Shown: positions 5,929 to 21,593 of the stretch, piece after piece
Position numbering within the stretch: position 1 is the stretch's first letter
How the letters are laid out: every line of letters begins with the position of its first letter
UHGV virus genome: UHGV-0206080
Length of the DNA stretch: 33,640 nucleotides
Origin: a virus
Reading direction: 5' to 3' (one strand)
Translations under genes and position numbers: made by a program
The notes under the pieces: generated by a model
What the model was told of the DNA's origin: nothing
Seen by the model: the letters and a program-made list of their open reading frames with translations, nothing else
Databases searched by the model: none

Positions 5929-6335
5929 AAATTCGTCAGGCGCAGACCAGCGCAACCTACATTCTGCCTGACCCTGGCGAGCTGAATAAACGCGTCCTGA
6001 TCCGCCAGCGGGTGGATATGCCCGCGGATAACTTTGGCGTGGAGCCTCAATACCCGGTTGCGTTCCGGGCATGGGCGAAGGTTATCCAGACCAGTGCCAC
6101 CACCTGGCAGGAAACCGCGCAGATCGGAGACGCCATCACCCATTACATCACCATTCGCTACCGCCGGGGGATCACTGCTGATTATGAGGTGGTCTGTGAT
6201 GACAGTGTGTACCGGGTGAAACGTCAGCGCGATCTGAACGGGGCGCGGCGCTTTCTGCTGCTGGAGTGTACGGAACTGGGCGAATTTACGCAGAGTCACG
6301 GAGGCAGCAATGGCGACTCCCTTTTTTCACGTTGA
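5925..6335 (+). CDS. Head closure / head-tail adaptor protein
   Basis: 136 aa; start overlaps upstream stop; position and size. Confidence 0.65.
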   Translation: MKIRQAQTSATYILPDPGELNKRVLIRQRVDMPADNFGVEPQYPVAFRAWAKVIQTSATTWQETAQIGDAITHYITIRYRRGITADYEVVCDDSVYRVKRQRDLNGARRFLLLECTELGEFTQSHGGSNGDSLFSR

Positions 6336-6816
6336 TGTTCAGCAGCCCGCGGAGATGCGCTTTAACCGCGCCCGTGTCCGGCGGGCGTTTGTCACGATTG
6401 GGCAGCGTCATATGCGTGATGCCCGTCGGCTGGTGATGCGCCGTGCGCGGTCGGCACCGGGTGAAAACCCCGGTTATCAGACCGGACGCCTGGCTCGTTC
6501 GATTGGTTACATGGTGCCGAGAGCCAGTAAAAAGCGAGCCGGTTTTATGACACGCATTGCCCCTAACCAGCGCAACGGTAAGGGGAACCGGATGATCTCT
6601 GGTGACTTCTATCCGGCGTTTCTGTTTTTTGGTGTCCGGGGAGGAGCAAAACGTCGTCGTAGTCATCATCGTGGTGCATCCGGTGGCAGCGGCTGGCGGC
6701 TGGCTCCACGTAATAACTTTATGGTGGAAACGCTTGAAAAGAACCGCAGCTGGACACGCTATTTTCTGGCGCGGGAATTGCGTAAATCACTGAAGCCGGA
6801 GCGACGACACAGATGA
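6310..6816 (+). CDS. HK97 gp10-like head-tail joining protein
   Basis: 168 aa; basic protein; synteny in HK97-type head module. Confidence 0.6.
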   Translation: MATPFFHVDVQQPAEMRFNRARVRRAFVTIGQRHMRDARRLVMRRARSAPGENPGYQTGRLARSIGYMVPRASKKRAGFMTRIAPNQRNGKGNRMISGDFYPAFLFFGVRGGAKRRRSHHRGASGGSGWRLAPRNNFMVETLEKNRSWTRYFLARELRKSLKPERRHR

Positions 6817-7373
6817 AACTGACGCCTGTTATTGCTGCGCTGCGTGTCCGCTGCCCGTATTTTGAAAACCGGGTGGCAGGCGCGGCCCAGTTCAAAAATC
6901 TGCCGGAGGTCGGAAAGCTGAAACTCCCGGCGGCGTATGTGGTACCGGGGGATGATTCTCCGGGAGAAAACAAAAGCCAGACCGACTACTGGCAGGAGCT
7001 GAAAGAGGGCTTCTCCGTGGTTGTCATACTGAGTAACGGGCGTGATGAGCGCGGTCAGTTTGCCTCGTATGATGTGGTGGACGATGTCCGGCAGATGCTC
7101 TTTAAGGCCCTGCTGGGCTGGAACCCGGAAGCGTGCGGTAACCCGATTACCTATGACGGCGGCACGCTGCTGGATCTGAATCGTCATGAGCTGATTTATC
7201 AGTTCGATTTTTCGGTCATCAGCGAGCTGACTGAAGACGATACCCGCCAGCTGGATGATCTGAACAGTCTGGATGAACTGCAAACGCTGGCGATTGATGT
7301 TGATTATCTCGATCCCGGTAACGGGCCTGACGGCGATATCGAACATCACACCGAAATAACCCTTCCTTCCTGA
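6813..7373 (+). CDS. Putative neck / tail terminator protein (family not resolved)
   Basis: 186 aa; ATGA overlap with upstream gene; lies between head completion genes and sheath. Confidence 0.5.
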   Translation: MKLTPVIAALRVRCPYFENRVAGAAQFKNLPEVGKLKLPAAYVVPGDDSPGENKSQTDYWQELKEGFSVVVILSNGRDERGQFASYDVVDDVRQMLFKALLGWNPEACGNPITYDGGTLLDLNRHELIYQFDFSVISELTEDDTRQLDDLNSLDELQTLAIDVDYLDPGNGPDGDIEHHTEITLPS

Positions 7374-7381
7374 GGATCCTC

Positions 7382-7552
7382 ATGTTTGTCAAACCTGTTA
7401 AAGGGCGGTCAGTGCCTGACCCTGCCCGCGGCGACCTTTTGCCCGCCGAAGGGCGAAATGTTGACGAGAACAACTACTGGCTGCGCCGTGAAGCAGCGGG
7501 TGATATCCGGCGCGTGAATAAAAAGGTGAACACCGATGACGATAAGCTTTAA
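7382..7552 (+). CDS. Small hypothetical protein (56 aa)
   Basis: ATG 7382 preceded by GAGGA; ends overlapping sheath start; below the ORF-track cutoff. Confidence 0.3.
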   Translation: MFVKPVKGRSVPDPARGDLLPAEGRNVDENNYWLRREAAGDIRRVNKKVNTDDDKL

Positions 7553-9032
7553 CACCATTCCGTCGAATACGCTGGTTCCGCTGTTTTATGCGGAAATGGA
7601 TAACCAGGCGGCGAATACTGCACAGGACAGCGGAGCATCGCTGCTGATTGGTCATGCCAATAACGGTGCAGAGATTGTTGCCAACAGTCTGGTGCTGATG
7701 CCGTCGGCAGACTATGCACGCCAGATTTGTGGTGCGGGAAGTCAGCTGGCGCGTATGGTCGAGGCTTATCGCCAGACTGACCCGTTTGGCGAGCTGTATG
7801 TGATTGCCGTTCCTGAATCCACAGGCGCGGCGGCAACGGTTACGCTGACGGTGACCGGGGAGGCAACCGAAACCGGCACGGTGAATGTTTATGTGGGACG
7901 TACCCGCGTGCAGGCACCGGTGACCAACGGCGATAACGTCGCGACGATTGCCAGCAGTATCAAAGATGCCATCAATGCCGTTCCGACCCTGCCGTTTACT
8001 GCCTCATCTTCGGCAGGCGTGGTCACACTGACCGCGCGTCATAAGGGGCTTTGCGGGAATGAAATTCCTGTCAGCCTCAATTACTACGGCTTTGGTGGGG
8101 GCGAAGTGCTGCCAGCGGGCGTACAGATTGCCGTGGCGACGGGGAACGCCGGAACGGGCGCTCCTGTTCTCACCGGCGCGGTGGCTGCAATGGCGGATGA
8201 GCCGTTTGATTATATCGGCCTGCCGTTCAACGACACGGCCTCCGTTAACACGCTGGTGACCGAGATGAACGATACCAGCGGTCGCTGGAGCTATGCGCGT
8301 CAGCTGTATGGTCATGTGTATACGGCAAAGATCGGCACGCTGTCAGAACTGGTGACCGCAGGTGACCAGTTTAACCAGCAGCACATTACCCTGGCGGGGT
8401 ACGAAAAAGAGACCCAGACGCCTGCCGACGAGCTGGCGGCAAGCCGTACCGCCCGCGCAGCGGTGTTTATTCGCAACGATCCGGCACGTCCCACGCAGAC
8501 CGGTGAGCTGGTGGGTATGCTGCCTGCGCCGAAGGGGAAACGGTTCACGATGACCGAACAACAGACCCTGCTGTCTCATGGCGTGGCAACGGCGTATGTC
8601 GAAAGCGGGGTGCTGCGCATTCAGCGTGATGTCACCACGTACAGGAAAAACGCTTACGGTGTTGCGGATAACAGCTACCTCGACAGCGAGACGCTGCATA
8701 CCAGCGCGTATGTGCTGCGCAAACTGAAATCCGTCATTACCAGTAAGTACGGGCGTCACAAGCTTGCCAGCGACGGTACCCGCTTTGGTCCCGGTCAGGC
8801 GATTGTCACCCCGGCGGTGATCAAAGGGGAACTGCTGGCAACCTACCGTCAGCTTGAGCGTGCGGGGATCGTGGAAAACTACGAACTGTTTAAGCAGTAC
8901 CTGGTTGTGGAGCGTGATGCCAGCGATCCGAACCGCCTGAACACGCTGTTCCCGCCTGACTATGTTAACCAGTTGCGTGTCTTTGCCGTGGTTAACCAGT
9001 TCCGTCTTCAGTATTCAGAGGAGTCTGCATAA
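7536..9032 (+). CDS. Tail sheath protein (Mu gpL-like)
   Basis: 498 aa; immediately followed by a 118-aa tube gene with start/stop overlap. Confidence 0.8.
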   Translation: MTISFNTIPSNTLVPLFYAEMDNQAANTAQDSGASLLIGHANNGAEIVANSLVLMPSADYARQICGAGSQLARMVEAYRQTDPFGELYVIAVPESTGAAATVTLTVTGEATETGTVNVYVGRTRVQAPVTNGDNVATIASSIKDAINAVPTLPFTASSSAGVVTLTARHKGLCGNEIPVSLNYYGFGGGEVLPAGVQIAVATGNAGTGAPVLTGAVAAMADEPFDYIGLPFNDTASVNTLVTEMNDTSGRWSYARQLYGHVYTAKIGTLSELVTAGDQFNQQHITLAGYEKETQTPADELAASRTARAAVFIRNDPARPTQTGELVGMLPAPKGKRFTMTEQQTLLSHGVATAYVESGVLRIQRDVTTYRKNAYGVADNSYLDSETLHTSAYVLRKLKSVITSKYGRHKLASDGTRFGPGQAIVTPAVIKGELLATYRQLERAGIVENYELFKQYLVVERDASDPNRLNTLFPPDYVNQLRVFAVVNQFRLQYSEESA

Positions 9033-9792: not shown

Positions 9793-11694
9793 ATGGCTGA
9801 TAATTTTCAGCTGAAAGCCATCATCACCGCCGTTGACAGGCTGTCCGGCCCGCTTAAAGGTATGCAGCGTCAGCTTAAGGGGTTTCAGAAAGAAGTCTCC
9901 AGCCTTGCTCTGGGCGCTGCCGGGGCGGGTACTGCAATAATGGGGGCACTGGCACTCCCTGTAAAATCAGCCATCACCCTTGAATCGAAGATGGCTGATG
10001 TCCGCAAAGTGGTGGACGGTCTGGATACGCCGGATGCGTTTAAGGCCATGACGGAGCAGGTACGCGCTTTGTCTACTGAGCTTCCCATGTCTGCAGACGG
10101 GATCGCGGAAATTGTGGCGGCTGGCGGTCAGGCCGGGATTGCACGTGATGAACTGATGCAGTTTGCCACTGATGCGGTGAAGATGGGCGTGGCCTTTGAT
10201 ACCACGGCTGAAGAGTCCGGGCAGATGATGGCCCAGTGGCGTACTGCGTTTAATATGACGCAGGATGAAGTGGCTGGGCTGGCTGACAAAATCAACTACC
10301 TTGGTAATACCGGCCCGGCGAATGCGAAGAAAATCTCCGATATTGTTACGCGTATTGGTCCTTTAGGTGGTGTTGCAGGTGTGGCTTCCGGCGAAATCGC
10401 GGCAATGGGGGCAACCATTGCCGGGATGGGCGTGGAGTCAGAAATTGCCGCCACAGGGATCAAGAACTTCATGCTTTCCCTGACCGCGGGAAATTCAGCG
10501 ACAAAATCGCAGAAACAGGCATTACGTTTTCTGCGGATCAATCCGAAGAAATTAGCTGCTGATATGCAGAAAGATGCCCGGGGAACCATGCTGTCTGTAC
10601 TGGATGCGATGGCTAAAGTGCCTAAAGAAAAACAGGCAGCTGTGCTGAATGCCCTGTTCGGGAAAGAGTCTCTGGGCGCGATAGCACCTCTGCTGACTAA
10701 CCTTGATTTGTTGCGTACCAACTTCAGGCGGGTTGCGGATTCCCAGCAGTATGGCAGTTCGATGCAGAAGGAATATGCTTCGAGGGCAGCGACGACGGAA
10801 AACCAGCTTTTACTTCTGCAAAATCAACTTGATGCCATTTCTTCCACTCTGGGGGAAACGTTTCTTCCTGAGGTTAATGATGGTCTTGAAGCGGTAAAAC
10901 CGCTCCTTGAGGAAGTGAGAACGTTTGTCCGTGAAAACCCGGAGCTCGTTAAGACCATTGCTAAAATCGGTCTGGCTTTACTGACAGTGGGGGCCGCTGC
11001 AGGCTCTTTGTCCAGAATCATGAAAGTTCTCGGCGGTGTGATGAATATGACGCCTGCTAAGGGTCTGATTGCTCTTCTGGTCGGTGCCGCTTACCTCATT
11101 ATTGATAACTGGGAAACCGTAGGTCCTGTCATAAAAAAAGTCTGGCGCGTGGTGGATGAAACGGCGCAGGCGATGGGGGGATGGGAAACTGTTCTGAAAG
11201 CGATCGCCCTGTTTATGACAACCAAATGGGTTGCTGACGTTACCAAATCCATTACCGCAGTGACCAGAGAGATGCGTACGCTGGGGAAGGTGTCGGCAGA
11301 AACGGGATTGATGGGGAAAGGCCGCGGCTTTATCGGGAAGGCCGGGGTATATGGTTTTCTGGGAACCCTGATGTATGAGCCGGTTAAAGATACTCTGGAA
11401 AGTGTTGTTCCTGAAGATACAGTTAACTGGCTGGATAATAAAGGGCTGTTTCTGGCTTCAGACTGGACGCCTTTTTTTGATCGTAAAGAGTACGAGCAGT
11501 ATCAGGCCAGCCTGAGTCAGTACAAACCCAATGTTCCGCTGTTGAATCCATCTTCTTCCATGACACAGCACAGCGAACTGAAAGTCACGTTCGAGAATGC
11601 TCCGCCAGGCATGAAGATAATTGATGTACCGGGCAAAGCCGATCCCCTGATGAAAATCACGCACGATGTGGGGTATTCTCCATTCAGGCGATAA
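9793..11694 (+). CDS. Tail tape measure protein
   Basis: 633 aa; Ala/Gly-rich with hydrophobic segments; position after chaperone. Confidence 0.85.
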   Translation: MADNFQLKAIITAVDRLSGPLKGMQRQLKGFQKEVSSLALGAAGAGTAIMGALALPVKSAITLESKMADVRKVVDGLDTPDAFKAMTEQVRALSTELPMSADGIAEIVAAGGQAGIARDELMQFATDAVKMGVAFDTTAEESGQMMAQWRTAFNMTQDEVAGLADKINYLGNTGPANAKKISDIVTRIGPLGGVAGVASGEIAAMGATIAGMGVESEIAATGIKNFMLSLTAGNSATKSQKQALRFLRINPKKLAADMQKDARGTMLSVLDAMAKVPKEKQAAVLNALFGKESLGAIAPLLTNLDLLRTNFRRVADSQQYGSSMQKEYASRAATTENQLLLLQNQLDAISSTLGETFLPEVNDGLEAVKPLLEEVRTFVRENPELVKTIAKIGLALLTVGAAAGSLSRIMKVLGGVMNMTPAKGLIALLVGAAYLIIDNWETVGPVIKKVWRVVDETAQAMGGWETVLKAIALFMTTKWVADVTKSITAVTREMRTLGKVSAETGLMGKGRGFIGKAGVYGFLGTLMYEPVKDTLESVVPEDTVNWLDNKGLFLASDWTPFFDRKEYEQYQASLSQYKPNVPLLNPSSSMTQHSELKVTFENAPPGMKIIDVPGKADPLMKITHDVGYSPFRR

Positions 11695-11723
11695 TAACCC
11701 TACTTTAATCAAGTAGGGTTATT
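11693..11723 (+). repeat. Perfect 13-bp inverted repeat (AATAACCCTACTT / AAGTAGGGTTATT) with 5-nt spacer
   Basis: Read directly from the sequence just after the tape measure stop; no T-run follows. Confidence 0.7.
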
Positions 11724-11758
11724 GAGTGGTAAAGTTTGTGCTGAATGTAGGAGAGAAT

Positions 11759-12247
11759 ATGAAGAAAATGTTTATATTGTTGTTGGCTGCAGGACTGCCA
11801 TTAAACTCCTTTGCGAAGCCAGTAACGGAAAAGCAGCTTGCTACATACTTTATAGATAACGTTAAAACTTCAGCAGATAAGAATATAGATCTAGATGTAG
11901 GTGGAATAAATAGACTGTCTGTAATATGCCCAGCAAAGTCGGCAAGTGGAACTCTTTTAATAAAAAAAGCATCCTACGAGTTTAATAAAGGTATTGGTGT
12001 TTTTGATTTTGAAAATAACTCACAATCTGCACCATTGGCTTTTATTGTACCAATTAGTGAGGATGAAAATAACTTTGACTCGGAAATTATTGGTTTCTCT
12101 TTTGCATTTAAAATGCCAAGAGGGCAATTCTTTGTTGATGTTACGAAATCAGGGAAGGTAAAGGCTGGCGTAAATATTAGTGGTGAAAGCGGAATTACTT
12201 ATTCATCATGTAGAATAGATACTCATAATGTTGATTATGATCTTTAA
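11759..12247 (+). CDS. Secreted hypothetical protein (moron) with N-terminal signal peptide
   Basis: ATG 11759 with AGGAGA RBS; MKKMFILLLAAGLPLNSFA signal-like N-terminus; strongly AT-rich relative to flanking tail genes; own terminator. Confidence 0.6.
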   Translation: MKKMFILLLAAGLPLNSFAKPVTEKQLATYFIDNVKTSADKNIDLDVGGINRLSVICPAKSASGTLLIKKASYEFNKGIGVFDFENNSQSAPLAFIVPISEDENNFDSEIIGFSFAFKMPRGQFFVDVTKSGKVKAGVNISGESGITYSSCRIDTHNVDYDL

Positions 12248-12261
12248 TTTTATTACCTAAT

Positions 12262-12290
12262 AAAAAACCGCGTTTACACGCGGTTTTTAT
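12262..12290 (+). terminator. Rho-independent terminator after moron (A-run, stem-loop, T-run)
   Basis: AAAAAACCGCG-TTTACA-CGCGGTTTTTA. Confidence 0.7.
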
Positions 12291-12303
12291 TTGAGGTGAC
12301 ACC

Positions 12304-13677
12304 ATGGATTTTTCTCATATTTCTTCGTACCTATCCTCTAATTCTCGAAGTGGCTGGCGTGAAAAGCTACTTGAAGCATCATTTCGAGGTGTGCCGTTTA
12401 AGGTTGAAGAAGAAAGTGCGGGAACCGGTCGCCGTGTGGAAACACATGAATACCCGAACCGCGACAAGCCTTATACCGAAGATCTGGGAAAAGTCACTTT
12501 CCGCCCGTCCATCACAGCTTATGTGGTGGGAGATGACTGCTTTGACCAGCGCGATCGCCTGATTGACGCGCTGAATAAACCCGGTCCCGGCACGCTTGTC
12601 CATCCGACATACGGTGAGATGAAAGTCTGTGTTGACGGGGAAGTTCGGGTCAGCACATCGAAAAGTGAAGGGCGTATTGTCCGCTTTGACCTGAAGTTTG
12701 TCGAAGCGGGAGAACTCTCTTACCCCACATCAGGTGCGGCGACGGCGCAGACGCTGATGTCATCCTGTTCTGCACTGGATGACTGCATCAGTGACAGCTT
12801 CAGCGGTTTCAGTATCGATGGCGTGGCGGATTTCGTGCAGAACGACGTTATCGGTAATGCCAGCATAATGCTGGGGTATGTTTCTGATGCGATGAAAGTG
12901 GTGGATTCTACCGTATCGGATGCCGCCAGGCTGTTGCAGGGGGATATCTCGGTACTTCTGCCGCCGCCATCGTCAGGCAAAAATTTCGTTGAGCAGGTGC
13001 AGAAAATGTGGCGTACCGGGAAACGCCTTTATGGTAACGCCAGCGACCTGGTCACCATGATCAAAACGTTTTCCGGTGTCAGCCTCGGCAGCGATCTGCA
13101 ACCGCGCGGCGTCTGGAAAACGGACAGTAAAACCACCGCCACGGCTACGCAGCAGCGTAACGTGGTTGCCAGCACCCTTCGTACGACCGCAATCAGCGAA
13201 GCGGCGTATGCCGTCACGCGATTGCCTGCGCCAACAACTTCCGCGGTGATGCAGAATTCCGCAGTGGGGCAGGCAACAACACCCGCGCAGAGCACTGGCT
13301 GGCCTGCCGTCACGCATCCGGCACTGAACAATGCACCGGCGGTGAAAAACACGGTTGACCTGCCGACGTGGGAAGAACTGACTGACATTCGCGACACACT
13401 GAATACGGCAATTGATAAGGAGTTGTCCCGTACAACCAGTGATGCGCTGTTTCTGGCGCTGCGCCGGGTGAAAGCAGATCTGAATGCGGATATCAACACG
13501 CGCCTTGAACAGTCTGCACGGATCATTCAGCGCACACCGGATGAGGTTTTACCCGCGCTGGTGCTGGCGGCGACCTGGTTTGATAACGCGGCGCGTGACG
13601 CGGACATTATCCGGCGTAATGCCATTACGCATCCCGGCTTTGTGCCGGTGATCCCTCTGAAGGTGCCAGTGCAATGA
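12304..13677 (+). CDS. DNA circulation protein (Mu gpN-like)
   Basis: 457 aa; position after tape measure in a Mu-like tail cluster. Confidence 0.7.
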   Translation: MDFSHISSYLSSNSRSGWREKLLEASFRGVPFKVEEESAGTGRRVETHEYPNRDKPYTEDLGKVTFRPSITAYVVGDDCFDQRDRLIDALNKPGPGTLVHPTYGEMKVCVDGEVRVSTSKSEGRIVRFDLKFVEAGELSYPTSGAATAQTLMSSCSALDDCISDSFSGFSIDGVADFVQNDVIGNASIMLGYVSDAMKVVDSTVSDAARLLQGDISVLLPPPSSGKNFVEQVQKMWRTGKRLYGNASDLVTMIKTFSGVSLGSDLQPRGVWKTDSKTTATATQQRNVVASTLRTTAISEAAYAVTRLPAPTTSAVMQNSAVGQATTPAQSTGWPAVTHPALNNAPAVKNTVDLPTWEELTDIRDTLNTAIDKELSRTTSDALFLALRRVKADLNADINTRLEQSARIIQRTPDEVLPALVLAATWFDNAARDADIIRRNAITHPGFVPVIPLKVPVQ

Positions 13678-17349: not shown

Positions 17350-19725
17350 ATGCATCGTATAGACACGAAAACCGCGCAGAAGGATAAGTTCGGCGCGGGT
17401 AAGAACGGTTTTACCCGTGGTAACCCCCAGACCGGCACGCCTGCCACCGATCTGGATGATGACTACTTTGACATGTTGCAGGAAGAACTTTGCAGCGTGG
17501 TGGAGGCCTCCGGTGCCAGTCTGGAGAAGGCGCGGCACGACCAGCTGCTTACCGCGCTTCGTGCGCTGCTGTTAAGCCGCAAAAATCCGTTTGGCGATAT
17601 CAAATCGGATGGCACGGTAGAACGCGCTCTTGAAAATCTGGGGTTACAGGATGTAAAAGCTGGTTCATTGAACAATCTGTACACTAACCATTCCCGTAGT
17701 GTCTTAATGGAATTGCCGTTATTATTCCCAGACTACGATACGGTGCTGGCTGCTCAGTCTGGTGCGGAATATATGTATCCACAGGGATTTGTGGTGACAG
17801 GAGAAAAAATCTATCTGAGTTATACCGTTGAGCCAAAGCAGACACGGAACGTTATAGTTCAGTACACAACATCCGGCGAATATGAGGGATATTATTATGT
17901 CGATAATGGAGGTCGTGGCGTTGTCAGCGAAGGCCTTGTGGTGACAACGGATTACGGTGGATTACGTTTGTTCATGTCAGGAGAAAATGGATTACTGAAA
18001 CAGTTTTCGCTTGATGGGGCAATTTCTGGTTCAGTATTGCCGTTAATTGATGAACATGATGTCGGTGTTTACAACCAGTTCAGCTATCGTAAAAACCGCT
18101 GGGTGGTTGAACAGTCAGCGCCGGAAGTGGGAGGCCTGATCACCCGCACAGTATTTGCGGTGTATGATTTTCAGTTTCGTCGGACAGGGACATTCACATT
18201 ACCGTTGCATGATTCCGGATATATCACGGAAAGCACAGACAGCTATGCAAGACGCTTCACAAAACGTCAGGGAATTGCTGTGGGAGACGATTATATTGCC
18301 TGTTCTTATGGTGGCTATTTTAATACCGGGGCATCAGCCGGATTTAACCAGTTTCAGGGGGTTAAGGTCTTTTCTCCGGATGGAGTAAAGCAGCAGGAAT
18401 CCATTCTTCATCCCCAAAAAATGATAGATGTGCTTACCAGGCAGGGTTTTACACCTTCGCGCATTGAGAACGAAGGAATTTGTATTTCTGACGACGGCGG
18501 CAGTATATATTCGCTTTATATCTTTCTGGAGCGTGGGTTACCACAGGCTTATCAGAAAGGAATTGTTCTGATGAAAGAGTTCAGTACTGGCAGAGATGCT
18601 ATTGATTTTCGTCAGGCAGCCTGGTTGTACACGGGGTTTGATGTGTCTCATGCCAGTATTGGAACATTTCCCCGTAGTGCCCAGGGGTTGGTAAACCCGG
18701 TGTTGGGGACGGTATTCACATCCCTGTCTGAAATTCTGGCATATATGCGTTCTGTGAGTCAGAAATGGTTTTGTCTGCATACAACCACGACACCGATTAA
18801 AGATCTGAGTGGAAATGACATTCCTGCTGACAATTATGTGTTCATCAAGAATGCTAATAACCAGACATTCTATATAACGCAGGAGTCAGCTGAAGGTGGA
18901 ATAAAATATAAAGCTGTCACTACAGACAGCGGAGAATATGGTTTTCAGCGACAAAGAGAGGCAATCTGGTCCAATGTTATCACCATCGCACAAAAGAGCG
19001 ATGGTGAGGATCAGTTTAATCGTATTATCGCTGCCTCGAAAAGTGGTTCAGGTAAAAATCAGGATAAAATACTGGTAGTTGACCAACAGGCATCAGAGGG
19101 GAATAACACGCTGGTAATTGGCGGTGGTTCATCTGTGTTCAGGTCAGCGACAGTGATTGATTTTGCAACGAATCAGGATGCAAATGCCACAGGAGGAGAA
19201 AAGAGATGGCGCATAGATTCATCAGGAAATCTCCGCCCTTATACAGATAATACGTATTCGATCGGTTATGCCTCATGGCGACCCGCACAGGTTTATTCAG
19301 CTACGGGAAGTATCAGTACATCAGACCGGACTCATAAACAGGACGAAACAATTCTGTCGGATGCAGAAAAAAGGGTTGCCAGAAAGCTGCTCGGGTATAT
19401 CTGTCGGTTCCGTTTCAGAGATGCAGTGTCCAGCAAAGGGAACGCAGCCAGATGGCATGTAGGAGTGATTGCTCAGGACGTACAGAAGGTCTTCTCTGAG
19501 GAAGGGCTGGACGCTTTTGATTACGGTATTTTGTGTCGTGATGAATATCCGGCGGAATATGAAGTGGTTTACGGGACTCGTATGGAGCTTGGTCCTGACG
19601 GACTCCTTACAATGGAAGAATACGATACCGGAGAGCGCAAGCTGGTCAGGGAGGCTGGTGAAATAATGTCTGTAAGGAATGATGAGCTGCATTATTTCAT
19701 GCTGGCATCGCTGTCTGGCCAGTGA
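17350..19725 (+). CDS. Tail fibre protein with C-terminal intramolecular chaperone-like (S74-type) domain
   Basis: 791 aa; GC-rich conserved N-terminus ([17 protein letters not shown]...), AT-rich distal part; SDRTHK motif at 19321-19338 resembles the S-D-x3-K autocleavage motif. Confidence 0.8.
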
Positions 19726-19765
19726 ATAATATTAATGTAAGGAGCGATATAAGCTCCTTACATCA

Positions 19766-19945
19766 TGCATTTTATGCTGCGATTATGCGTTCTCCTGTTG
19801 TTTGTTGCTGAGAGTGAAACACCGGAAACATACTGGTGGATTGAAATGTTCTGTGTGGCAGCGTATGAATATGTCGTGGTAGGGTGGATAAAAAATGCCC
19901 GTGATGATCCGGGCAACATAGCAGTATGCATTTTTCTATTGTGAA
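19766..19945 (+). CDS. Small hydrophobic hypothetical protein (59 aa)
   Basis: ATG at 19766; translation MHFMLRLCVLLLFVAESETPETYWWIEMFCVAAYEYVVVGWIKNARDDPGNIAVCIFLL; nearest SD (AAGGAG, 19739-19744) is 21 nt upstream and inside a hairpin. Confidence 0.25.
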
Positions 19946-20453
19946 CTGATGCATTATACAAGTAATGCTGTTATTGAGGAAAGTTTAAAGAAGCGGCTCT
20001 TCTCCGCCTGTAAAGTTTGGTCATTATTGCTTTATATATAAGTTCCACCAGTAGGCGATCATCTATGATGTTGGCATATCGACTTTGTATAAGAGGTTTC
20101 CGGTCGGAGATAAATGAAACCGTAGCACGTCGTATGCAAGAACGTGCCACGGCTGGCTGGCGAACTTTCGATAGTGCGAGTATTGAATGATTTCCAGCTG
20201 TTACTGATTTTATATAACTGCAGTGGAATTATTCAACACACAGGCAAAACGGAATAAGCTGAGAAAAAAAAGCGTGCTTTCCCAATCTGGGGTAAATCAC
20301 ATCTGAATGACACCTGAAAACAGGTGGTGGCCTCAAGAAGGCTTGGAATATTCTTCTTTAATGTTATGTAATTTATTGATTTTTCGTGTACGATTTTAAG
20401 ACATTTATTCCAAGAAAAATTTTTAACTCTTTGATTTTTCGACTCTGTATCAT

Positions 20454-20515
20454 CGGTCTCGAAAACCGGAGTGGGGGCAACTCCACCGGGGGTTCAAATC
20501 CCCCTCTCTCCGCCA
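20454..20515 (+). other. attP core: 3' portion of a tRNA-Ser gene (anticodon loop CGA region through T-arm and CCA)
   Basis: GGTCTCGAAAACCGGAG...GGGGGTTCAAATCCCCCTCTCTCCGCCA matches tRNA-Ser with long variable arm; no 5' half upstream. Confidence 0.75.
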
Positions 20516-20560
20516 AAATTCAATCACTTACACATCATTAAGTCAGTGACAAAAATCACA

Positions 20561-20594
20561 CTTGGAATTACTTGGAATATTGTCTTGGAATATT
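20561..20594 (+). repeat. Three direct CTTGGAAT(A/T) repeats, putative arm-type integrase binding sites; further copies at 20342-20350 and inverted at 20406-20414
   Basis: Read directly; repeats flank the tRNA-derived core and overlap the integrase 3' end. Confidence 0.5.
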
Positions 20595-21593
20595 TTCAGG
20601 TAACGGGACATCAAGTGTTGGTGAAACTTTAACCTTCCTGTCATAGATTAGCACTTGCCCTTCGGTTTTGTGACCAGAGAAAAGTTGCTTATCCCGACTG
20701 CTTCCTTCATAGTCTGAAATTCCTTTCGCCTTCAGATCATGAAAGGTGAAGTCGGTTAAAATACCTGAAATTTTGCCTGCGCGATTTCTTGCTTCTACCC
20801 ACATTTCGTTAAAGCCTTTGTACATATATCGGTTGCCGTATTGATTGCTGATTACATAGGCGGATGTTGGTAACTGTTTTGCTTTTTCGATCGCCGCCTG
20901 TAATCGTGGACTCCATGCTTTTATCTGTTTTTTCCCTGTTTTCCCTTGCTGGATAAAGATCCCGTCGTTTCCAATCTGCTCCCATTTCAGCGATAACACA
21001 TCGGAAACCCTCGCTGCACACAGATAGGCAATTTCCATTGCGATAAAAACAGGAAGAGGTGCAACGCTTAATACTGCCTGGTATTCTTTGTCGGTTACAT
21101 ATCGTTCGCGGTTTTTGGCCTTGAATTTACTTACACCTGCACATGGGTTAGCCTTCACGTACCCTCGCTCATATCCCCAACTGTAAACGCGGGACATACT
21201 GCTTTTTTCATGGTTGGCTTGCGTTTTGCTCTGTTCCCCTCTTTTGTCCATGTATCGACGGATGTGTTCTGGTTTTATGGAATCCGCTGGTACCTTACCG
21301 AATACGGCAAGCAACTTTTTTTGATGTTGCAGATAATCTTTTTGTGTTCTTGGGCTAAGGTCACTGTAACAGGCGCTGGCGAGGAATTTTTCCCACAAGC
21401 GACCGAATGTCATTGCACGATCGCGATTATTTACAGTTTCCTCATACTTTTTCCATAAAGCAGCTAAACCATCCTTGATGGCGGTTAGTGTTACAGATTC
21501 TCTGGATGTTGGTTTCCATACATAACTATATTTATTTGGGTATACATTTGGAGGTAATTTTTCGTGTTCAGGATTTTTCCTTCGTCTTCCCAT
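20568..21593 (-). CDS. int: Tyrosine integrase (lambda Int-like)
   Basis: 341 aa; C-terminal catalytic region ...RVSDVLSLKW...FHDLKAKG...GHKTEGQVLIYDRK with Tyr nucleophile; adjacent to attP. Confidence 0.9.
   Translation of the reverse strand: MGRRRKNPEHEKLPPNVYPNKYSYVWKPTSRESVTLTAIKDGLAALWKKYEETVNNRDRAMTFGRLWEKFLASACYSDLSPRTQKDYLQHQKKLLAVFGKVPADSIKPEHIRRYMDKRGEQSKTQANHEKSSMSRVYSWGYERGYVKANPCAGVSKFKAKNRERYVTDKEYQAVLSVAPLPVFIAMEIAYLCAARVSDVLSLKWEQIGNDGIFIQQGKTGKKQIKAWSPRLQAAIEKAKQLPTSAYVISNQYGNRYMYKGFNEMWVEARNRAGKISGILTDFTFHDLKAKGISDYEGSSRDKQLFSGHKTEGQVLIYDRKVKVSPTLDVPLPENIPRQYSK

Follow-up and report, generated by a model that had tools for sequence, protein, structure and literature searches.

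A two-module tail fibre with a mobile propeller-stalk-chaperone cassette, probably self-chaperoning, in an SfV/Mu-type E. coli prophage

The fibre gene and its setting

We analysed the tail fibre gene of UHGV virus genome UHGV-0206080, a stretch of viral DNA of 33,640 nucleotides (nt) that we refer to throughout as the window. The gene is one open reading frame (ORF) of 791 amino acids (aa) and 87.6 kDa, its stop codon included in the coordinates given in Table 1, and it very probably encodes a fibre made up of two modules that meet at a conserved linker, the second module being a propeller-stalk-chaperone cassette that would assist its own folding. Directly 5' of the ORF, Pfam identified homologues of Mu gp45 (PF06890), gp46 (PF07409), gp47/Baseplate_J (PF04865) and gp48 (PF10076), the last being the immediate upstream neighbour, and because these baseplate homologues lie immediately upstream we place the ORF in the fibre slot of a Mu-type baseplate. 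On its 3' side, a gap of 840 nt is followed by an integrase gene (20568..21593, minus strand) and by a small ORF in excisionase position. This layout is that of phage SfV, except that at the fibre locus SfV has a 216-aa fibre, a tail fibre assembly (Tfa) gene and gtr genes. Taken together, the gene is intact and is best read as encoding the single tail fibre of an SfV/Mu-type E. coli prophage, an SfV-like temperate myovirus.

Table 1. Features of the fibre gene and its immediate 3' flank, in coordinates of the window (CDS, coding sequence; pLDDT, the per-residue confidence of the structure model).
Feature	Position	Strand	Basis or remark
Tail fibre CDS	17350..19725	+	ORF list; position after Mu baseplate homologues; identical intact ORF in E. 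coli of sequence type 131 (ST131) type
N-terminal baseplate-anchor module, SfV/Mu-type, aa 1-99, GC 55.7%	17350..17646	+	nt identity to SfV-type fibres
Shared linker, aa 64-99, likely crossover zone	17539..17646	+	common to SfV-type fibres and a second Mu-type prophage lineage
Predicted five-bladed beta-propeller, aa ~112-430, putative receptor-binding 'platform'	17683..18639	+	
Near-invariant propeller residues	E194 17930-17932; K305, Q307 within 18263-18271; E373, E375 within 18467-18475	+	
Alpha/beta sub-domain after the propeller, aa ~440-533	18667..18948	+	AlphaFold2 pLDDT 70-86
Beta-rich stalk, aa ~540-657, for which folding is expected only in an intertwined trimer; R644 at 19279-19281	18967..19320	+	low monomer pLDDT; alignment to known stalks
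Intramolecular chaperone / Peptidase S74, aa 658-791, 15.3 kDa; S658 at 19321-19323, K663 at 19336-19338	19321..19722	+	PF13884; PDB sequence matches
Terminator-like hairpin closing the late operon	19735..19763	+	11-13 bp stem, T-rich tail

An exact copy of the fibre gene and of the next ~750 nt was found in 53 complete genomes of E. coli, of which many are ST131-type. In one of these (locus L001, NZ_AP022525.1), positions 6001-8376 correspond to window positions 17350-19725, and there the RefSeq/PGAP annotation divides the uninterrupted 791-codon gene into an 'stfP, incomplete' pseudogene that covers the first 99 codons and a 326-aa 'tail fiber domain-containing protein', leaving ~1.1 kb, the propeller, without annotation. 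Taken at face value, the annotation of NZ_AP022525.1 implies a locus in decay, a pseudogene or remnant; we regard this as scarcely credible, given that the window and the genome have one and the same 2,376-nt frame, uninterrupted by any frameshift or stop, that full-length homologues align with the fibre from end to end, and that every domain is complete. The RefSeq split of this ST131 gene is therefore wrong, and it is best explained by annotation from the homology of the first 99 codons to K-12 stfP. With pseudogene and fragment labels in place, host-range surveys that build on annotation will miss the fibre gene in RefSeq ST131 genomes.

A conserved anchor joined to a foreign distal module

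Searching 50,697 phage records with the fibre gene, we found that only its first 287 to 296 nt match other phages at the nucleotide level, and no single record in this set covered more than 12% of the gene. Over nt 1-287 the identity to SfV orf21 is 96.5%, with 94-95% to SfI, SfII, SfIV and three E. coli myophages, and at the protein level similarity to SfV-type fibres stops at '...ALENLGL' (aa ~99, nt ~17646). Base composition changes at this same place: GC content falls from 55.7% in 17350-17636 to 45.8% in 17637-19725, and GC at third codon positions (GC3) falls from 62.5% before the junction (~17640) to 42.7% after it, with the four upstream baseplate genes at 61-66%. Low GC alone is not unique in the window, since it recurs in an island at ~11250-12750 and throughout the int/early region (43-48%); the step is informative because it coincides with the homology breakpoint. 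Those other low-GC parts would be in keeping with a drop caused by amino-acid composition or local selection instead of horizontal acquisition, but such an origin is very hard to reconcile with a fall that is strongest at third codon positions, that lies within ~10 nt of where nucleotide homology to SfV-type phages ends, and that coincides with the protein-level module boundary. The original prediction had described a conserved myovirus-type N-terminus of ~100 codons, a turn to AT-rich composition at ~17640 and a swapped distal region, and each of these holds, the swap being indicated jointly by the place where homology breaks off, by the fall in GC3 and by the presence of the same module on four other anchor types. 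Its starting position of 17640 is an internal junction, the gene itself starting at 17350.

Sequence comparison shows that both halves of the fibre move independently. On one side, the SfV-type first ~100 aa precede at least eight other distal architectures and head many unrelated distal modules (P0017-P0049). On the other, the propeller-stalk-chaperone cassette was found behind four other N-termini, namely P2-type tail-collar (PF12571), TSP1/gp66 (PF18668), P22 head-binding (PF09008) and T7 fibre (PF03906), with 36-77% identity across these anchor types. Window positions 17539-19884 are moreover shared at 97.3% identity with a second Mu-type prophage lineage that lies near the psp operon (locus L008, 6193-8533), a stretch of 2.35 kb that begins at fibre aa ~64, takes in the terminator hairpin and ends 159 nt beyond the stop codon. 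Because this cassette is so nearly identical in a different prophage lineage, the whole distal module has been exchanged recently between prophage lineages, and because the 36-aa linker (aa 64-99) is common to SfV-type fibres and to this second lineage, it is the likely crossover zone.

The distal module is a predicted five-bladed propeller

Pfam returned no family in the propeller region (aa ~108-550), and a profile built from 18 family members found no PDB chain for the distal region among all PDB sequences (best E 0.72, unrelated). We therefore turn to the structure model. An AlphaFold2 monomer model, made with 19 homologues, has high confidence over aa 112-530 (pLDDT mostly 80-96), where 20 beta strands lead into a small alpha/beta domain. 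Confidence is poor in the N-terminus and in the stalk, which is what one would expect of parts whose folding requires a trimer. Foldseek ranked 9m7x, the 80alpha receptor-binding protein (6v8i), 5efv and the P68 fibre (6iab) at the top, with the chaperone structures 4uw8 and 3gw6 coming next, and the best match in BFVD was the tail fibre of a Staphylococcus Twort-like phage. By this fold match the region resembles phi11 Gp45, that is, a five-bladed propeller, one per protomer, after a helical stem. The alpha/beta sub-domain is kept together with the propeller in homologues, those of Staphylococcus and Weissella phages included. On these models, the distal module is best described as a propeller-type receptor-binding domain, five-bladed and phi11-Gp45-like, rather than as an endosialidase or a beta-helix depolymerase, and the propeller would be the part that binds the receptor. 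The nozzle propeller of phage SU10 was also considered as a relative and set aside, being seven-bladed and unrelated.

Several homologues of the cassette in coliphage and Salmonella-phage records are labelled 'endo-N-acetylneuraminidase' (OQ469755, PP213477, PV833354, MT862763, PV029541, PV053165), and such labels, along with 'tail spike', suggest that the distal module could be an enzyme, a capsule or O-antigen depolymerase. We consider this unlikely: neither a sialidase nor any other enzyme family was matched, Pfam gave nothing in aa 111-550, the labels are explained by the common chaperone domain alone, and the structures that match best in fold belong to Staphylococcus phage receptor-binding proteins, which are not enzymes. 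An endosialidase of family GH58 in particular was rejected, as the weak PF12219 match (13.2 bits, cutoff 25) covers 37 residues within the stalk (aa 621-657) and the fold is five-bladed, not six-bladed. Between the labelled homologues and true endosialidases only the chaperone domain is common, and the propeller of the homologues is the five-bladed one; because nothing beyond the chaperone domain is shared, their labels are probably a propagated annotation error.

Returning to the propeller as a receptor-binding domain, its family is small, with 287 representatives among 1.84 billion sequences (E <= 1e-3), and about one in five carries the chaperone domain (29 of 141 representatives). By sequence, the propeller was detected in only 52 phage records, comprising 31 from Staphylococcus, ~16 from E. 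coli/Salmonella, two each from Erwinia and Weissella and one from Mammaliicoccus, with identity highest in Kayfunavirus (52%) and lowest in phages of Gram-positive hosts (20-31%). Across the 141 representatives, five polar residues are highly conserved (E194 94%, K305 99%, Q307 100%, E373 100%, E375 99%), and they are so in phages of Gram-positive and Gram-negative hosts alike, from staphylococci to enterobacteria. Conservation of 94-100% is unexpected for a host-specific binding site. Judged from the strands of the model, these residues would sit on, or slightly ahead of, the first strand in each of four predicted blades, and the active or ligand sites of propellers are usually found at the first strands of blades; a catalytic or conserved-ligand role is therefore conceivable. 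Specifically, there is a slim chance that the propeller carries a conserved active or ligand site that recognises or cleaves a chemical feature shared by wall teichoic acids and certain surface polymers of enterobacteria. An example of such a polymer may be offered by the group 2 K antigens of extraintestinal pathogenic E. coli, which are phosphodiester-linked and teichoic-acid-like. If true, this would make the propellers a new family of phage glycopolymer-binding or glycopolymer-degrading proteins and would point to the receptor of the ST131 prophage. In phi11 Gp45, the proposed ligand of the propeller cavity is N-acetylglucosamine (GlcNAc). Being small, lacking a Pfam model and having no solved member that is detectable by sequence, the family is a reasonable target for structural genomics.

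Stalk and built-in chaperone

Following the propeller and the alpha/beta sub-domain, the monomer model drops below a pLDDT of 50 in the stalk, a beta-rich segment that is homologous by sequence to known stalks, aligning with the residues that precede the chaperone in T5 pb1 (4uw8), 7y5s and K1F endoNF (3gw6), and that is followed by the chaperone domain at the C-terminus. Evaluating this C-terminal domain, we found a PF13884 (Peptidase_S74) match of 38.6 bits (gathering score 22) at aa 658-720, covering the full 58-position profile. The stalk end and C-terminal domain together matched PDB sequences of T5 pb1 (4uw8, 1e-17), a phi29-type neck appendage fragment (3gud, 3e-16), a phage tail fibre (7y5s, 2e-15) and K1F endoNF (3gw6, 3.5e-14), and two tailspikes were matched as well. 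The original prediction had pointed to the motif SDRTHK near 19321 as a fit to the S-D-x3-K cleavage motif of an S74/intramolecular chaperone domain, and both claims are substantiated: the motif is S658-K663, the S658 codon starts exactly at 19321 and opens the PF13884 match, and the Ser-Lys dyad and the stalk arginine are conserved. By itself the motif would be weak evidence, because the bare pattern SDxxxK occurs four times in the six-frame translation of the window.

The alignments extend to the catalytic residues. SDRTHK aligns with the cleavage sites of phi29-type gp12, T5 pb1 and K1F endoNF, and the first residue of the released 3gud fragment is the one aligned to S658. R644, which lies 14 residues before S658, aligns with an arginine of 3gw6, 4uw8 and 7y5s and is conserved in homologues, such that R644, S658 and K663 stand in register opposite endoNF R897, A911 (an S911A mutant) and K916. 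In characterised proteins, the Ser-Lys dyad and the stalk arginine are needed for autocleavage, which fires only after the trimer has folded correctly (PMC8326128; PMC3742443). By analogy, we predict cleavage between T657 and S658, which would convert the 87.6-kDa chain into products of 72.3 and 15.3 kDa. A domain that is retained permanently, serving trimerisation without cleaving, seems improbable to us: the MyRF domain does behave somewhat differently from the phage versions (PMC8326128) and cleavage here is read from conserved residues, but R644/S658/K663 are in register with endoNF R897/S911/K916, all three of which are required for cleavage, and S-D-x3-K is conserved in every chaperone-bearing homologue.

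No assembly gene follows the fibre

In Tfa-dependent fibres (Mu S/U, P2 H/G, SfV orf21/orf22) the assembly gene lies directly 3' of the fibre gene, an arrangement that the window does not have. No Tfa-sized ORF lies between 19726 and int (20568), where we found only ORFs of 25-67 aa, the longest being 57-67 aa, and in the second Mu-type lineage, which shares the hairpin as part of the common cassette, the fibre is again followed by no Tfa gene. The original prediction that no separate fibre assembly chaperone gene follows is thus upheld, the hairpin at 19735-19763 closing the operon and no ORF above 67 aa preceding int. A 59-aa ORF at 19765-19944 was weighed as a cargo or chaperone gene and rejected, having no Pfam match and homologous DNA in the second lineage that is read in another frame. 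That related fibres switch between a built-in chaperone and a separate Tfa gene has already been documented (BASEL, PMC11990801).

As for the remainder of this 840-nt gap (19726-20567, 40% GC), SfV carries gtr O-antigen-modification genes at the equivalent place. The gap has a further terminator-like hairpin at 19915-19896, on the minus strand, and an Rfam search of the gap gave only sub-threshold matches, AgvB-like at 19890-19943 on the minus strand (22.9 vs 56 bits) and CssrB-like at 20091-20151 on the plus strand (29.6 vs 76 bits).

Proposed assembly and comparison with known systems

To bring these parts together, we propose that module 1 (aa 1-99) docks a fibre trimer on the baseplate, while module 2 (aa ~100-791) would be a receptor-binding cassette that is complete in itself and passes between unrelated phages. 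Each protomer would contribute one propeller and one small alpha/beta domain, three per fibre, as in the phi11 Gp45 'platform'. Three chaperone domains would trimerise and template the folding of the stalk, and once the stalk has folded, S658, activated by K663 and with R644 stabilising the transition state, would cut the T657-S658 bond, freeing the 15.3-kDa fragment and leaving the 72.3-kDa mature protomer. No separate Tfa gene would be needed, because the built-in chaperone is proposed to fold the stalk and then release.

In function and architecture, the closest known system is K1F endoNF (tailspike gp17, 3GW6), which has the same order of parts: an N-terminal anchor, one propeller per protomer, an intertwined stalk and a C-terminal chaperone. 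It differs in that its propeller is a six-bladed GH58 sialidase, whereas the one here is five-bladed and without sialidase signature, and in that its anchor is of podovirus type, whereas ours belongs to a Mu-type baseplate. Over the last ~185 aa, that is, the distal stalk and chaperone, no sequence matches better than the C-terminus of T5 pb1 (4UW8), and the fragment released from pb1 is reported to have 133 aa (PMC4690869), a size similar to the 134 aa predicted here; pb1 is, however, a 1,396-aa siphovirus fibre without a propeller, in which the receptor-binding tip is the end of the stalk.

The propeller fold is closest to phi11 Gp45 (5EFV), which together with 80alpha (6V8I), P68 (6IAB) and NF5 (9M7X) makes up the top fold matches for aa 112-530. 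In phi11, a helical stem precedes a five-bladed propeller, one per protomer, and the three propellers form a 'platform' that is proposed to bind GlcNAc on teichoic acid (PMC4901313). These solved chains have no sequence-level similarity to the fibre here, in contrast to other, unsolved tail proteins of Staphylococcus and Weissella phages that are sequence-related at 22-31% identity, and phi11-type proteins end in a 'tower' domain without an S74 chaperone, come from phages of Gram-positive hosts and have the GlcNAc of wall teichoic acid as ligand.

In anchor ancestry, the closest relative is SfV orf21, which along with orf22 and the SfI/SfII/SfIV equivalents follows the same baseplate gene set and is nearly identical over its first ~96 codons. 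The SfV fibre is 216 aa long with an unrelated distal part and depends on the separate Tfa gene orf22, whereas here the distal 690 aa include a built-in chaperone. Finally, the same cassette is present at 46-77% identity in fibres of the Kayfunavirus (T7-like) phages EcoIv39_Milel and EcoIv41_Bia and in P2-collar-type fibres (P0002/P0003), which have other anchors (PF03906 T7 fibre N; PF12571 tail-collar) and belong to other virion types.

To summarize the relevance, the fibre is a new example of well-known phage mosaicism, with nothing that challenges current understanding, and its additions are modest: the propeller assignment, the precise cassette boundaries and the RefSeq mis-annotation of the ST131 gene. 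It does offer a clean case of temperate phages of pathogenic E. coli, ST131 prophages included, being re-targeted by a cassette graft on a fixed baseplate adaptor, and the cassette boundaries (the ALENLGL linker and T657/S658) are ready splice points for the engineering of fibres or tailocins.

Other features of the window

In E. coli genomes, the identical fibre copy sits at the prophage end that adjoins zinT, and similarity of the window to this ST131 prophage end fades at 20473-20530, the site of a 3' tRNA fragment. ARAGORN called no tRNA gene in the window; the 3' half of a tRNA gene nevertheless lies at ~20450-20530 (fragment ~20450-20512), ending ...GGTTCAAATCCCCCTCTCTCCGCCA. Because similarity decays at this fragment, we read the window as the excised, phage-form order of the ST131 element, and the fragment region as probably the attP core.

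The low-GC island at 11250-12750 (~40%) is the second such region and lies inside the tail module. It contains an extra ORF of 173 aa (11726..12247, plus strand) between the tape-measure and DNA-circularisation genes, at a position where SfV has no corresponding gene; the ORF is without a Pfam family, matches phrog_5586 of unknown function, and looks like a moron-type insertion.
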